Assembly (NCBI GenBank): GCA_963812015.1
Contig: CAWETI010000003.1
Coordinates: forward strand, 1,952,001-2,016,000
Direction of reading: 5' to 3'
From: an uncultured delta proteobacterium
Lineage (GTDB): Bacteria > Desulfobacterota > Desulfobaccia > Desulfobaccales > 0-14-0-80-60-11
Length of the DNA stretch: 64,000 bases
Part shown: positions 42,001 through 48,000 of the stretch, in pieces
Layout: each line of letters opens with the position of its first letter
How positions within the stretch are numbered: the stretch's first letter is position 1
Position numbers: made by a program

Positions 42001-45000
42001 AGGGAATACCGGGTAGGACACATCGTGATCGGCAAACCGGGCCCGCTACCCGCCTGGAGACGCTGGCTTGGAGGGAAAACTATTGTGGAGCAATTAATCC
42101 ACCACGCCCATGGCGTCACCATTGTCGTAGTGGATACCGGTTCAAAACCGGAAAAGGAAGCATCTCAATAGAGGGTAAAATGGTTTTTCTTAGCAGGCCT
42201 ATTGCATAGATCAAGAAGAGAGAAAATACCAGATCACCGCTAGGGTCTGTAAATAATTCTGTGTAAATGGTAATCAAAACACAGGAGGATTTACAGGTGA
42301 CGATCGACGATGAAATCATTCAGCAGCTCCAGGAAGACCTCAAGGAGTGCAAGTATATAGATGATCTCTTGGGGAAAGATGGAGCCATTAAGAAACTCAT
42401 CAAGAAGACCGTCGAGCGTATGCTGGACGCCGAACTGACCGAACGTCTGGGTTATGAGAAGCATTCCCCTTCAGGAAAGGGGGCCGGCAACAGCCGCAAT
42501 GGTTCCAGCGCCAAGACTTTAATGATGACGCTTTAAGGAAACTGTCGTATCTGTCGTACCGGGCGATAGACCCAAAATGGACGATGCCACTGCGCAACTG
42601 GCCGTTTATTATCTCGTAATTTTCGATTATGTTTGAGGGGAGGTTAGGGATGGCCTTGACGTAACTCGGTCAGCTTTTCGAGCCAGAGCCGAAGGAGCGC
42701 TTCTCTCGCCGGCGCCTGCCTACACATTAGCAGGAGCCAGGCCAGGCAGTCAAGGCCGAGCGCAGCGAGCCGTAGGGTTAGCCTTGACAGGCTGCCGGCT
42801 CATGCTATTTTCTCAAGGTAGAGGCGAGAGAGGAAATTCAAAACTCAGAAAAACCCATTTACACAAAAAATCTTACAGTCTCCCTTGACCGGATAATCTT
42901 CTTTGATTGGCGACATTAGTTTGTTCACCCGGCCATTCTCATAGACCACCACGGTTTCCACCAGGGCTGCCACGTCCTCGGGATCATGGGTTATGAGTAT
43001 GACCGGGATGGTAAACCGCTCTTTAATCTTCAAGAGTGCCTGGCGCATCTTGGCCCGCAGCAGGGTCCTCTTGGATGAAAATCCCTTGGGCCCCGTCTAA
43101 ACGATACAGTCGATCAACGGCGAGGGCCGGATGGCGCTCATGGGTGAGAATCAAAATGGTTGCGGTACTTTTGCAAGCGTTGATGACCTCGGCAAGGAGT
43201 TTGCGTGCCCTGTCGTCGAGGTTTGACCATGGTTCATCGAGGATCATGATCGGCGATTCTCTCAAGAGCAGCCTGGCAATGCAAATCCGCTGCCTCTCAC
43301 CAGTGCTGGCCCCGATGCCGCGCGGGTCCATTACGGTTTCAATGCCCTGAGGCAAACGCGCCACAAAGTCCTTTAACTGGGCGCGTTCAAGGGCCTGGAA
43401 AATCTGTCGGTCACTCGCGTCCGGCTGCGCGATAAGGAGGTTGCCTCTCAGCGTCTCCTGGAAGATAAAGTAATTCTGGGTGACAACCCCAACTTTCCTC
43501 CGCAGCTCGGTGCGTGAAATCCGCCGGATGTCGATCCCGCCGATGGAGATGACTCCTTCCTGGGGTGCATAAAGGCGGAGGAGCAAATTGATGAGAGTGG
43601 ATTTGCCGCTTCCACTTTCGCCGCCAATGACGGTGACGGCATGGGCGGGAATGAGCAGGTGCGCCCGGTTGTAGAGCTGCCGCCCTCCCGGGTAACCGAA
43701 GGTTAGACTGGATAACTCGATGGCGACGGATTGGCTTGGCAGAGTTTCCGTGGGGTGGCTCTCTTCCGCCTCAGGGGCTTCAGCGAGAAATCCGGCCAGA
43801 TGTCGAATCCCGGTAAATTCGGTCTGCACGGTGGCCACCAACCTGGTGAGTTGGGTGACCGACATCTGCAAGAGGGTGGCATAAAAGAAAAAAAGCAAAA
43901 AAGGCTCGAGACCCATCTTACCGCGGGCGATGAGGTAATAGGCCAGGGCCACCAACCCTAAGCCGCCCAGTTGGGTGAGAAGCTCAATACCGGGGGAAAA
44001 CACCGAGAGCACCGCCCCGGCTCGTACAGAAAGCTTCTTCAGTCCGGTGGTGTGCTTCTGGAAATGTGCCGCTTGCTGCCTCTCGGCAGCCAGTACCTTG
44101 ACGGTGTCGATCCCCTGAATGGTTTCGTCGAAGACCCGCTGTATTTCGCTCCACGTGGCCCGCTGAGCCCTGGCATAAAAACCCATAATTCGGTTGAGGA
44201 CGGTCACGAGTATCGCGGTGATGCCCACGATGCCAAGGGCCGCAAGGGTAAGCGAGGCTGGGCAGAAATAAAAGAGCACGGCCGTCACCGCCAGAGCGGT
44301 GATGAGTTCGCGCCCGACACCGGGAAGAAAATCAGCGAAGAACCGCTGGGCCTGCGCAATATCACTGGTGAACTTGGTGAAAAATTCGCCGGCAGATTGC
44401 TTCTGGAAATAGAACAAGGGCAGGTGGCTTGCCTTATCGAAAAAATCGGTTTGAAGCTGCTTGAGCAGGTTGAAAGAAAAGACGGTGCCAGTATACCCGC
44501 TAATCCCTTGCAGCACTGCGATGGCCAGGAAGATCAGGGCTAGTTGCTCGAGCAAGGGCAGCCCCGAGGTCCAAAGATTGGCGTATTGGCCATTGATGGC
44601 AAGGCTTACCAGCTGTTGATAGTAGCGCGGCTGCAGCGCCATGAGCACCCCGCAGCCGAGCTGCACGATAACTAAGAGCGCCAAAGGGAAGCGATAGCGT
44701 GAGATGACGCCAGTTATCCAGGATCTCATGGCTCTGGGTTGGCGTGGGACTTTCTGTGCAGGTCTGCCAGGGCTCGATGGATTCTTGCAAATATGAGCTG
44801 ATAATCTTTGCAGAAAGGGTCCTTGGCCATATGGTCACCACAAAACACCAAGGCGTTGAGGGGGCACCCGCCGTGGCAGATTGACCAGTGCATACAGGTG
44901 TGACAGGCTGAAAGCGTCTCGGCTCGCCGCCGAATATCTTCACAAAAAGGTGAAGCCATCAATTCCTGGATTTCACGGTCGTGGATATTACCTAAGGGGT

Positions 45001-48000
45001 GGGTCTCAAACCGGCTGCACAGCACGGCATCCCCGGAGGGTTTCACTCCCAGGTGCGACCCGACACAGGTGCCTTGCTGCTGGCATTCGTAAGGCACACC
45101 ACCAAGAATTGCCTCCAGGTACAGGTCCAGAGGCGACACTGTGACCCGCTGGCGTTCCGTACTGGCCCATTCGTCGAATAAGCGGCAAAGAAATGAGCCA
45201 TATTCCCCTGGCTGAAGCAAGGATGGTGTAGAGCTCTCTGGGTTGCTTCCCGGAATCATCGGGTTAACGCGGAAACCGTACCCGAGGCCCTGAAAGTACT
45301 GGTAGATTTCCTGCTCCTGACCCAGGCTCCGCCGGCTAACGACCGCGTTGAACCCCGCTGACACGCCCTGTTCTTCCAAAAGGCGAACTTTCCCCAAAAC
45401 CGCCGCGTGGCTTCCCTGCCCATCTGCACCGATTCGCATCGAGTCGTGCAAGACTTGGGGGCCGTCGAGGCTAATACCAATCTGGAACTCGTGGTCACGG
45501 AAAAAGGCACAAAAGTCATAATCGAGGAGCAGGCTGTTGGTCTGGAGATAATGATGGAATCTCAGGTCCGAGGCAAGCCCGTCAAGAATTTTCATCGCCG
45601 CCCTGAAGAACCCGAGGCCCGCCAGGAGGGGTTCTCCCCCGTGCCAGAGGATATGGATTTCCCTGAACCCATGGCGCTCGGCATAGCGGGCCGTTTTTTC
45701 CAAAGCCGTCTGCAGCGTCTGCCGGCTCATGACGCCGGTCCCGGCACCGTCCGAATAGCAATATCGGCAGCTTAGATTGCAGCGCTTCACCGGCTCCAGG
45801 ATAAGGGTGAAGGCGTCGTTGGCATCAACCGGCATTGGCGAGCTCCCGCCGGACGGCTTCCCGCAGGTGGTGACGGAAAGTCCTCAATCCCTCACAGAAG
45901 TACGTCTCCCCCCGGACCTCATCCCAAGCGGGGGGGAGAACGGCGTCGGCCCAGCGGTTGTCAGGCAGCCCCTCTGAGCGGGCGCGGAGCAGCATAGCAT
46001 TGTATTTCATGCAGGTGAAACACCCCCCGCCACACTGCTGGCCCCATTCACAGCCTCCACAGGCCATGTGTTTCCCGGACCGCCGAATCCTCTGCTTAAT
46101 CTTTTCCCACAGGACGGCCTTGTTCGTTAAAATGGTAGCCAGAGAATCCTGGTGGATATCTCCCAGGGCCGTCTGCTCATCATTCACCCATTGGTCACAG
46201 CTGAACACCCTGCCATTGGGGGCAAAAATAAGGCGCCGGAAGTCGCACCGTTTCTTGTGGAATGGGTCGCCCAGCTTGATTTCCGGCTGCAGGACCATCT
46301 TGACTTCTTGCCGCAATTCTTTGAAATCCACCTGCCCCTCCTGGTCCCAGAACCAGAGATCAAACAATTCGATCAGAAACCGTCCCACTTCTTCCGGCAG
46401 TGGGGCAAGGTCTGACAACCCTGAAACCTCGCCGGCCTCCGGGATCAGGTCCAGCCAGCGCACATCATAGATGTCCAGCTGGACCTCTGCTCTCAATTTC
46501 TTGAAGAATTCAAACAGGTCGAAAGCGCGGTCGATGCTCGCCCGGGTAACCACGGCAATCACTGCCACGCGGTCTGCCATGGCGTGACGGCGGTAATGTT
46601 CAATGCCACGCAGGGTGGCATCAAAAGACCCGGCGCGCGAGCCTGGAGAGCACCGGTACCGATCGTGAATCTCCTTGGGCCCATCGAGGCTGAAGCCCAC
46701 CTGAAATTGATATTCGCCGAGCAATCGAGCCATATCCTCGCTCATGAGGGTCCCGTTGGTCTGAATCCGGTTTTCAAAAGAAAGCTCAGGATACTGAGCC
46801 TCGAGACGGATGATGGCGCGAAAAAAATCGCTGCCCGCCAGCAGGGGCTCGCCGCCGTGCCAGTAGATCTGCATTACCTTGGTGAGAGGATCAACGGTCA
46901 GATTATGGGCGATGACGCGGCGCAGAATCGTCTCAACCGTAGAGAGGGCGATAATACCCCCGGAATGCTCCTGGAAGCAATACCCACACGCCAGGTTGCA
47001 GTTCCGAGTTACCTGGATTTGGGGCACCACCGGTAGACGTTTTTCCCAATCGGGACCGCATGGTTGTATAAGGGAGAGATTTTCCGTCATGGAAATGCAC
47101 AGGAATTTGAGGCACTGGACGTATTCTACAGTTTGGGAAAGTCTAATGCCAGGTGAGTTGCGTGATCAAAATACTGCACACTAGAGGCCTTTCAAAACTC
47201 TGAGCGAAGCGAAGAATCTAAATTTTCAAATACATAGACCTTTCGCTGCGCTCAGGGTGAGAGAAAAAAAGCGGTTTTGCAATGATTGCTAATATCACGT
47301 CCACCAATTGAACCAGTTGTGCCAGTTGGACCAGTTGTGCCAATTCCTCCAGTTGCGCCAATTCCCCCAGTTGCCCCAGAATGGGAATCCTACCCGCCTC
47401 TTCTTTTCCTGGCGGATTTCCTCCAGGAGTTCACGGAGGATCTTGTTCTTAACTTTTGTACCTTGAAGAATCCCAGCCATGGCGTCCTCCTCACTATCTC
47501 GATCTCGGCGGAAAGGCATTTCCGTAAGTTAGGTAGTTGATTCCTTCCGGTCCTTTGATAGAGTGCCCCGGGACATTACAGGTCGCTTCCAGTTTTTGCG
47601 GAGCGTTTTTAAAATTGGCATCCGTGGTTATTCCCGGATTAGGCACCGCAATTTTCTTGGCTCTCGATTTTATCGGGTTATTCTTTCTCCCTGGATTCTA
47701 TTTAACAATTGGGATACATACCTTTGGCATACATTTCATGCGCCAGCGCTCCATGGCCACCAGATAATTACCTTGCTGGACCGGGCTCATTTGGGCCAAT
47801 TCCTCGTTCAGCTGATTCCTAAAAGAAGCAAACAACTTAGCCTGCGCGGCCGTGTAAGCCTTTACCAGATCTTTGACCTTCGCCTCGTCAGGCTTGGGCG
47901 CTGCTAAGGCGGCCTGCAAATCCTCCCAAGATTTCTTCGATTCGTCGACGATATCTCCGCGCATTGACGAATATTTTGCTTCCAACGCTTCAACCGCCTT

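Follow-up and report, generated by a model that had tools for sequence, protein, structure and literature searches.

What does a bacterium make from a short peptide that ends in an unbroken run of Trp-x-Asn (W-x-N) triplets, and why are two radical SAM enzymes encoded beside it? The question is raised by a locus in a 64,000-nucleotide stretch of DNA from an uncultured delta proteobacterium (the window, whose positions are used throughout). A preliminary description had listed a 61-aa peptide with eight tandem W-x-N triplets in its C-terminal part, two radical SAM/SPASM enzymes of 421 and 369 aa, and an ABC exporter, all in a row on the minus strand, and had read them as a RiPP system. ORF calling and Pfam searches reproduced this layout, including the lengths of both enzymes, the Radical_SAM and SPASM domains in each, and ABC_membrane and ABC_tran in the transporter. 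They also revealed a fifth gene that was absent from that list, next to the precursor. The features are:

47698..48162, minus strand: CnrX/CpxP/Spy-like helical protein, putatively periplasmic, 154 aa (Pfam Metal_resist, AF2, Foldseek)
47295..47480, minus strand: precursor peptide, 61 aa (ORF, homologue family)
47198..47254, minus strand: predicted RNA hairpin followed by UUUU (fold energy against shuffles)
47091..47190, minus strand: conserved non-coding block 5' of the gene for radical SAM enzyme A (alignment of 11 spacers)
45825..47090, minus strand: radical SAM/SPASM enzyme A, 421 aa (Pfam, NCBIfam, tree)
44726..45835, minus strand: radical SAM/SPASM enzyme B, 369 aa (Pfam, NCBIfam, tree)
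43023..44729, minus strand: ABC exporter half-transporter, 568 aa (Pfam)

Neighbouring genes overlap, the start of B with the end of A over 11 nt and the start of the ABC gene with the end of B over 4 nt, which suggests co-translation.

The small ORF spans 47295-47519 on the minus strand; its 61-aa form begins at the ATG at 47480, with GGAGGA 7 nt upstream. A leader, MAGILQGTKVKNKILRELLEEIRQEKKRRVG, and a junction, FPF, precede a core of eight contiguous W-x-N triplets plus WWT (C-terminal sequence WGNWGNWRNWRNWHNWSNWHNWFNWWT). Metagenomic sequences supplied 46 homologues with E <= 0.01, from 47 candidates, sharing the conserved leader VLRELLEEIRQE...[FY]P[FYH]W plus the Trp/Asn periodicity. 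The peptide thus represents a genuine conserved family and not a chance ORF. Its own genome holds one copy (the other match, at E 3.3, is noise), and no Pfam or NCBIfam family matched it at E <= 0.01.

The homologues define what is constrained in the core. The 45 distinct cores hold 5-10 W-x-N units each; the middle residue of the unit is free, with 15 different residues occurring there, Trp and Asn being fixed in the array. The residue at Trp+2 is Asn for 323 of the 417 Trp, Thr for 41 (mostly in a terminal WWT) and none for 42, and Asn stands at Trp-1 in 311 cases. These two statistics are near-equal inside the array, so that the register is deduced mainly from a few variants with spacers: in L028, L014 and P0046, which carry Gly/Ser spacers, W-x-N is kept whole and the Asn-Trp adjacency is gone. 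Since the Asn residues of the window precursor are encoded by both AAC and AAT, the constraint acts on the protein level, rather than through homogenisation of a DNA repeat.

The same gene order, precursor-A-B-ABC, was seen again in 24 species-level genomes, all parts being present wherever the locus was long enough. Of the 24 loci with an A-family gene, 23 have the precursor upstream; 21 have B downstream, and one more has it in split form; and 21 have ABC downstream, which follows B in every related locus of sufficient length. Every missing part coincides with a contig end. The flanking genes, by comparison, vary from locus to locus. The hosts comprise Desulfobaccales-type MAGs, Desulfospira joergensenii DSM 10085, Desulfocapsaceae and Acidobacteriota, and so represent two phyla; they are sediment bacteria. 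B-like loci outside the cassette (L045, from Aenigmatarchaeota, L031 and L037) have no W-x-N peptide and were dropped. In addition, contigs from RNA libraries, 90-99% alike, span A, B and ABC in all four metatranscriptome runs examined, a weak hint that relatives of the cassette are transcribed. The co-conservation of precursor, A, B and ABC in two phyla is strong evidence for a RiPP cluster. That part of the preliminary description therefore stands, as does its view of W-x-N as the triceptide motif; neither enzyme, however, reaches the cut-off of a named cyclophane maturase. The description also proposed the window peptide as the most densely cross-linked member of its class, a ranking that finds no support here; relatives have up to 10 units.

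The two enzymes share about 29% identity, and their clades are not sisters. In a quick tree search, whose deep branches are not resolved, A (on a long stem) and B each form a clade of their own (100 for both), separate from the clade of three DynA-passing representatives (100) and outside that of four anSME-passing representatives. Identity in the A family is at least 48% within the cassette and at most 35% outside it (search of genome contigs). The CX3CX2C motif comprises C31, C35 and C38 in A and C19, C23 and C26 in B, and is kept, together with the GGE motif, in all aligned orthologues of both. All eight SPASM cysteines are present in B. In the SPASM region of A, the first cysteine of auxiliary cluster I is missing, one additional Cys follows GGGC-xx-C, and there are two insertions. 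Across the phyla, CX3CX2C and the SAM-binding motifs are invariant in both enzymes, which argues that both are catalytic.

All NCBIfam cut-offs were missed by both enzymes. Their best matches were DynA (NF041298; 179 bits for A and 257.1 for B, the latter full-length, against a cut-off of 450) and anSME (TIGR03942; 180.9 and 230.6, cut-off 349.45). None of the characterised 3-CyFE families claims them either, the scores of A and B being 78 and 88 for XyeB (cut-off 450), 120 and 134 for GrrM/OscB (310), 93 and 122 for FxsB (370), 108 and 138 for YhhB (445), and 101 and 128 for AmcB (425). Matches in the PDB by sequence were to anSME and the cyclophane synthase ChlB, the closest being anSME 4k36 (E 6e-33 for B, 2e-29 for A). 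The Pfam scan of the window ORFs detected no RRE domain.

To which known class does the cassette come nearest? Triceptides are defined by an aromatic-X-X3 motif in the precursor core (PMC11499958). Within this motif, O1-X2-X3, Trp-Asn links are known for XncB (Trp C6 to Asn C-beta; position 3 Arg or Asn) and OscB (Trp C7 to Asn/Asp C-beta; position 3 Asn or Asp) (PMC11002830). The cassette resembles these systems (XncB/XyeB; OscB = GrrM) in having the aromatic-X-X3 motif with Trp at 1 and Asn at 3, several such motifs per core, and an adjacent radical SAM/SPASM maturase in which no RRE domain is detected. Replacements at position 3 of W-x-N are rare and are R, D and T; R and D are among the residues published for this position. 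A triceptide-type linkage, from the Trp ring to the Asn C-beta within the triplet, fits both the motif and its natural variation. The differences are nevertheless substantial. The enzymes lie far under the XyeB and GrrM cut-offs and in separate clades; each precursor is accompanied by two of them; no spacer separates the motifs, which stand 5-10 in a row; and the leader is different, in a precursor that no NCBIfam precursor model matched. Furthermore, xye clusters are described with an aspartic protease and HlyD (bioRxiv 10.1101/2024.12.16.628070), and the cassette has neither.

According to PMC12912966, the 3-CyFEs have a common origin with the maturases of daropeptides, whose hallmark is a W-X-aromatic motif with an ether link (PMC12912966; PMC9055067). 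The cassette is like the darobactin/DarE system in its anSME-like radical SAM/SPASM maturases, Trp-rich core and ABC-type exporter. Unlike in daropeptides, however, W-X-aromatic is absent from the repeat array, where Trp is spaced i, i+3, the aromatic-X-aromatic form being limited to the junction [FY]-P-[FYH]; nor is either enzyme of the DarE type (NF038005; 115 bits for A, 92 for B, cut-off 650).

The explanation that we favour, at a probability of roughly 0.6, is a self-contained RiPP cassette that combines triceptide-type rings, two non-redundant maturases, export and a periplasmic partner. From the genes and motifs, we infer the following route. The helical, charged leader of the precursor would present the contiguous Trp-x-Asn core to A and B. 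At least one of them would most likely take the C-beta hydrogen of Asn at position 3, and the C-beta would then be coupled to the indole of Trp at position 1 of the same triplet, as in the triceptide reaction, giving up to eight rings in an unbroken row, or nine if WWT counts. The second enzyme would also be catalytic and non-redundant, either sharing the work or making a modification of another type, for which the invariant aromatic-Pro-aromatic junction would be one possible site. Against this reading stands that no triceptide pathway found in the literature searched employs two radical SAM enzymes on one precursor, a need that the route leaves unexplained.

The later steps would involve the ABC half-transporter, which may move the product across the inner membrane. 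It consists of a TMD and an NBD (ABC_membrane, residues 17-291; ABC_tran, 355-501) without a C39 peptidase domain, and its NCBIfam matches, of MsbA/CydDC type, are all sub-threshold. The Pfam scan of the window ORFs and the comparison of neighbours in related loci found no protease or outer-membrane component belonging to the cassette, and the leader would be cut off by a protease encoded elsewhere.

In 17/24 related loci, the fifth gene is the immediate upstream neighbour of the precursor and has the same orientation. The 154-aa protein, from the ATG at 48162 with AGGAGG 7 nt upstream, has an N-terminal hydrophobic segment that resembles a signal peptide and a C-terminal C-x4-C. It passes Pfam Metal_resist (PF13801) marginally, with 30.1 bits against a gathering cut-off of 29.2. 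Its AF2 model (pLDDT 81.9) contains four long helices, and the top Foldseek matches, weak by E value (0.03-0.5) at a probability of about 1, are NccX, CnrXs, CpxP, ZraP and Spy. Score and helical hairpin fold place it in the CnrX/CpxP/Spy/ZraP group, without naming a subfamily. In the Desulfobaccales branch, this protein may bind, chaperone or sense the product in the periplasm.

Two non-coding elements lie between the precursor and A. Just past its stop codon, the hairpin at 47198-47254 folds with -33.9 kcal/mol (z -3.88; 0/200 shuffles as good), and other GC-rich palindromes occupy the same place in relatives; partial termination or stabilisation of the transcript is its probable role. The block at 47091-47190, directly upstream of A, is conserved in most Desulfobaccales-type loci and includes a sigma-70-like match at 47152-47123 (CTGGCA-18-TAGAAT, 9/12 positions), and may be an internal promoter or regulatory site. 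Over 42000-49500, Rfam gave two sub-threshold tmRNA-like matches and nothing else, and ARAGORN gave nothing, the real tmRNA genes of the genome being elsewhere; no integration site was called there.

Having set out the favoured route, we would note that the same RiPP system could have another topology, with links other than C-C bonds between Trp(i) and Asn(i+2). Candidates are dynobactin-like four-residue rings from Trp(i) to i+3 (here the next Trp), C-O or C-N links, or two link types by which A and B fuse neighbours into a ladder. In dynobactin, the 10-mer WNSNVHSYRF (PMC10125368), a single enzyme closes one ring from i to i+3 and one C-N ring. This enzyme, DynA, forms a Trp-Asn C-C bond (PMC10288494; PMC11002830) that joins i to i+3, not i+2, as well as a C-N bond between His and Tyr (PMC11002830). 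No family scores higher with B than DynA, and a Trp-Asn C-C bond is also what the triceptide reading would predict; B, however, has just 28-30% identity to the representatives that pass the DynA cut-off and, like A, falls outside the clade that they form. Likewise, Trp recurs at Trp+3 in 315/417 cases, yet the spacer variants break the Trp-Trp spacing and still keep W-x-N. The residue at position 3 decides whether DarE and XncB make ether or C-C links (PMC11851443), and the two conserved enzymes of the cassette are not sisters, which suggests two chemistries; both points argue for a different linkage. Asn is nonetheless conserved as much as Trp, as would fit Asn being the reacting residue. Taken together, another topology seems to us unlikely.

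The ladder deserves separate mention, since here A and B would install two link types on one spacer-less array and produce a ladder-like rod of about 27 residues, one link closing Trp-x-Asn and the other tying neighbouring units or the aromatic-Pro-aromatic cap. We consider this rather improbable; to our knowledge, a continuous ladder-like rod is not a known topology among cyclophane peptides. If true, the rod could mimic a long beta-strand and act on the assembly of outer-membrane proteins, which is the target of darobactin, dynobactin and xenorceptide, and the co-inherited Spy/CnrX-like protein could serve the producer as self-protection or as a sensor.

Could A and B share one chemistry and one effective catalyst, the other enzyme being mainly a scaffold or leader-binding subunit of an obligate complex? 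The model for this would be TrnC/TrnD of thuricin CD, sactipeptide thioether enzymes of Firmicutes, which have two precursors, whereas the cassette has one. They are two radical SAM/SPASM enzymes encoded together that form a joint complex (PMC12093266), and are likened here to A and B by description, not by sequence. The A and B genes do overlap and always co-occur, and the derived SPASM region of A might befit such a subunit; against this, the invariance of the catalytic motifs holds for both proteins. A prediction of the A-B complex, made without control runs, scored 0.00 and bears on binding in neither direction. Altogether, we judge a single catalyst quite improbable. Scarcely credible is the view that there is no RiPP and that anSME-type enzymes act on a protein beside an incidental ORF: anSME is the first or second NCBIfam match, the best PDB sequence match and of the same domain plan, but both enzymes fall under its cut-off and outside its clade, no sulfatase occurs among the neighbouring ORFs scanned with Pfam, and the small ORF, conserved with them in 23/24 loci as a dedicated peptide substrate, has a core without conserved Ser or Cys.

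Returning to the triceptide-type cassette, its novelty was judged against the literature searched. The core words NWRNW, WGNWGNW and WRNWRN occur in no paper there, NWHNW only in an unrelated nanowire paper, and no paper pairs Desulfospira joergensenii with radical SAM. Among the matches listed, those for Trp-x-Asn or WxN were all unrelated papers, and none described a two-enzyme triceptide (TrnC/TrnD appear); a published triceptide survey network may already contain these enzymes as an unnamed cluster. Equally absent from that literature are a natural array in which 5-10 stapling motifs follow one another without spacer, a pair of non-sister maturases always co-inherited with one precursor, and a periplasmic chaperone- or sensor-like partner.

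Radical SAM ring-stapled Trp peptides include the BamA-targeting antibiotics darobactin, dynobactin and xenorceptide, and the enzymes that make such rings are sought as peptide-stapling catalysts. With a core cassette of about 4.5 kb, a direct test by heterologous expression is feasible, and one version is carried by a cultured strain, Desulfospira joergensenii DSM 10085. With the A/B pair, the sharing of one substrate by two radical SAM enzymes can also be tested cleanly. Within a known class of ring-stapled peptides, the cassette seems to form a two-enzyme branch that has not been described so far, and its unusual feature is the co-conservation of two maturases.

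The preliminary description had the precursor peptide followed by two radical SAM/SPASM enzymes (A and B) and an ABC exporter, and the three corresponding open reading frames are indeed present, with the Pfam domains found in each. From the open reading frame listing, the cassette and the gene next to it are arranged as follows:

43023-44729, minus strand: ABC transporter, 568 aa (Pfam ABC_membrane and ABC_tran)
44726-45835, minus strand: enzyme B, 369 aa (Pfam Radical_SAM and SPASM)
45825-47090, minus strand: enzyme A, 421 aa (Pfam Radical_SAM and SPASM)
47295-47519, minus strand: small open reading frame of the precursor, in which an internal ATG at 47480 gives 61 aa
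47698-48162, minus strand: fifth gene (Spy-like), 154 aa from ATG 48162, directly upstream of the precursor

By these coordinates, the end of A overlaps the start of B by 11 nt, and the end of B overlaps the start of the transporter gene by 4 nt. No peptidase domain was found in the transporter by the Pfam scan.

In the raw sequence, GGAGGA lies 7 nt upstream of ATG 47480; the 61-aa form assumed previously is therefore the likely product. Its C-terminal sequence, WGNWGNWRNWRNWHNWSNWHNWFNWWT, holds the eight back-to-back W-x-N triplets that had been claimed and a final WWT besides. Both Asn codons, AAC and AAT, are used, and TRF detected only an imperfect 9/18-nt periodicity (72–84% matches) in the array, from which it follows that its regularity is held at the protein level. 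Of the 47 candidates that a search of a protein collection with the precursor returned, 46 are homologues at E ≤ 0.01; they are 43–72 aa long and none bears a family name. Their alignment shows a conserved leader, ...VKNKVLRELLEEIRQEKKRRVAFP[FY], and then the Trp/Asn array. Ahead of the first Trp stands an aromatic-Pro-aromatic junction, which is not always FPF: FPY, FPH and YPH occur as well.

Pooling these homologues with the peptides read from related loci yielded 45 distinct cores, which carry 5–10 W-x-N units each (seven in 19 cores, eight in 17, ten in 2), apart from one truncated entry with a single unit. The second residue after Trp is Asn for 323 of the 417 Trp and Thr for 41, mostly in the terminal WWT; it is missing for 42, and the others are W (5), R (3), D (2) and L (1). 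The middle position accepts 15 different residues. Since Asn also precedes Trp 311 times, a W-x-N register is indistinguishable from N-W-x inside the array. A few peptides allow the two to be distinguished: in those of loci L028 (...WHN-G-WGN-G) and L014 (...WYN-G-W) and in the metagenomic homologue P0046 (...WGN-S-WGN-G-W), a spacer ends the Asn-Trp adjacency and W-x-N is kept whole. In another metagenomic homologue, P0044, the array changes midway to ...QLAQLVQLVDVI, which is the reading of an overlapping alternative frame in the window (47218-47361, minus strand); either a frameshift in this copy or an error of sequencing accounts for the switch.

Turning to the enzymes, CX3CX2C, GGEPLL and QTNG are kept in all aligned orthologues of A (14 sequences) and B (16 sequences), and both enzymes look catalytic. 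B has eight conserved cysteines, taken here to make up a full SPASM domain. In A, the first auxiliary-cluster-I cysteine is missing, an additional conserved Cys stands three residues beyond the GGGC cysteine, and there are insertions of 7 and 18 aa. Cysteines were assigned to clusters as in anSME. The two are about 28–30% identical to each other. Among solved structures, the nearest by sequence is anSME and the next is the cyclophane synthase ChlB. Against the cyclophane-maturase models of NCBIfam, A and B score far under every cut-off: 179 and 257.1 bits, respectively, for DynA (cut-off 450), 120 and 134 for GrrM/OscB (310), 78 and 88 for XyeB (450), and 115 and 92 for DarE (650). For the anSME model TIGR03942 (349), the scores are 180.9 and 230.6.

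An exhaustive search with B returned 24,665 representatives at E ≤ 0.001, with identities of at least 42% in the B group and about 36% just outside. Among 117 representatives scanned, three reached the DynA cut-off and four that of anSME, and the B-like ones had no match at E ≤ 1e-85. A quick IQ-TREE search on 65 rows, with SH-aLRT support and a midpoint root, gave a tree that leaves out the other families of 3-CyFEs (enzymes that form three-residue cyclophanes). In it, the A orthologues group in a single clade (100) with a long stem, the B orthologues together with the B-like representatives form another (100), and the rows that pass the DynA (100) and anSME (97) cut-offs each have a clade of their own. 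A and B are not sisters in this quick tree and neither falls inside DynA or anSME, with the deep branching left without resolution.

To follow the cassette, contigs of one genome per species were scanned with three alignments (peptide, B and A). Taken together, the scans identified 24 loci whose A-family gene is at least 48% identical; beyond these, identity drops sharply, to no more than 35%. In 23 of the 24, a precursor that has the junction motif lies at most 700 nt upstream of A; in the remaining locus the contig extends only 240 nt in that direction. B follows A in 21 loci, two others end before B, and in L119 (the same as L030) B is in two pieces. The ABC gene follows in 21 as well, the remaining three ending too early. 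B is split into 2–4 in-frame pieces in L101, L111, L117 and L119, all from long-read MAGs, which could reflect assembly indels or real decay. By record titles, the hosts are MAGs of Desulfobaccales, 'delta proteobacterium' and Syntrophobacterales, one Desulfocapsaceae MAG, the isolate Desulfospira joergensenii DSM 10085, two Acidobacteriota MAGs (Korobacteraceae and Terriglobales) and a 967-nt contig binned as Maribacter. Compared with the window's, distant cassettes are 50–61% identical in A, 43–53% in B and 44–61% in the transporter. In the order to which the window belongs, the peptide occurs in 19 of 83 species genomes, the window's own included (13 of 58 high-quality genomes), and in 5 of 17 genera, with all carriers within one of two families. 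The cassette is a patchy accessory unit.

The core pattern fits the triceptide reaction better than any other we considered. What defines a triceptide is a bond from an aromatic residue to C-beta within an aromatic-X-X3 motif (PMC11499958), and the published Trp-Asn links are those of XncB (C6) and OscB (C7) (PMC11002830). We propose that at least one of A and B turns each W-x-N unit into a cyclophane of three residues, for three reasons. First, positions 1 and 3 of the unit are fixed and position 2 is free, with R, D or T occasionally at position 3. Second, the unit survives spacer insertion. Third, A and B belong to the anSME-like SPASM group. The window peptide would then hold up to eight rings (nine if WWT is counted) that adjoin one another without a linker. 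As both enzymes look catalytic and are co-inherited across phyla, both are taken as needed. They might split the motifs between them, or one might form another type of link, for instance where the aromatic-Pro-aromatic junction lies; they might also act as a complex, as described for TrnC/TrnD (PMC12093266). The ABC half-transporter would export the product and an unlinked protease would remove the leader; no protease, HlyD or TolC gene was common to the related loci among the flanking genes compared.

The precursor stop codon is followed by a stable hairpin and U tract (-33.9 kcal/mol, z -3.88), as is usual where more precursor than enzyme is to be made. Relatives have other palindromes in the same place: in close relatives (loci L003-L019), the precursor-A spacer is longer by about 130 nt of nested, GC-rich palindromes (such as CCCCTTTCCTAAAGGGGG), which are missing from the window, where the hairpin is a different one. 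About 100 nt ahead of A are conserved in most close relatives and include a weak sigma-70-like match. Six RNA runs contained 15–19% of the sampled words. In all four metatranscriptome runs compared, labelled sediment or wetland, short contigs 90–99% alike cover the genes for A, B and the transporter; these contigs are from relatives in mixed communities, and DNA may be present in RNA libraries. They suggest, though only weakly, that relatives transcribe such cassettes.

The fifth gene starts at ATG 48162 with AGGAGG 7 nt upstream, and the N-terminal hydrophobic segment of its product looks like a signal peptide. The product is just over the cut-off of Pfam Metal_resist (30.1 bits against 29.2). 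Its AF2 model, built on 16 orthologues (pLDDT 81.9), consists of long bundled helices, and the best Foldseek matches are NccX, CnrXs, CpxP, ZraP and Spy, with weak E-values (0.03–0.5), probability of about 1 and target TM-scores of 0.57–0.74. The gene lies beside the cassette in 17 of 17 loci with A at least 76% identical, and is absent from all four more distant loci with 5 kb of upstream sequence; it is counted as a clade-specific member. In the window it stands about 220 nt from the precursor (47493-47740 region). Some relatives have about 17–20 nt there, together with a shorter Spy-like C-terminus (...WRQD-MCLP), and one RNA-library contig from a relative carries this short junction. The product might be a binder, chaperone, immunity factor or sensor.

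Outside the cassette, genes vary by locus (transposase fragments, Usp, KAP NTPase, RuvA, TIR and STAND NTPases). The surroundings are defence-island-like in two loci: in L027 (Desulfospira joergensenii), the upstream neighbours of the cassette are genes for a TIR-domain protein and an nSTAND1+TPR NTPase (347-4523), and in L030 an nSTAND2 protein is encoded upstream (239-2035). In the window, a 67-aa open reading frame (42845-43048, minus strand) overlaps the 3' end of the ABC gene and resembles just the C-terminal portion of ModC/PotA-type ABC ATPases, and a mutator-family transposase fragment lies at 42267-42536 (plus strand); the stretch 42267-43048 resembles the downstream boundary of an inserted island. 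Transposase fragments adjoin the cassettes of L004 and L007 as well. Upstream, 48863-49004 (plus strand) gives a weak tmRNA/tRNA-like Rfam match (21–23 bits, cut-off 47), and ARAGORN found no gene there; the real tmRNA genes of this genome are on contigs C3 and C5, and the element may be a degenerate tRNA-like remnant. Translations of 38361-42171 (plus strand), read by eye, resemble a Kdp potassium-transport operon: besides KdpC and a P-type ATPase like KdpB, there is a protein similar to the N-terminal portion of KdpD; these genes are not kept beside the cassette in relatives.

Both the W-x-N motif and the enzyme superfamily are already known. That the product is the most densely cross-linked member of its class, as suggested earlier, is unproven. 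The literature searched contained no description of this W-x-N peptide family; the main triceptide survey, which lies outside that literature, may hold the enzymes as an unnamed cluster. Four features set the family apart from the known systems in the literature searched: two non-sister maturases always accompany one precursor, the motif array is without spacers, the leader and the pair of enzyme clades match no curated model, and there is a periplasmic CnrX/CpxP/Spy-like companion.
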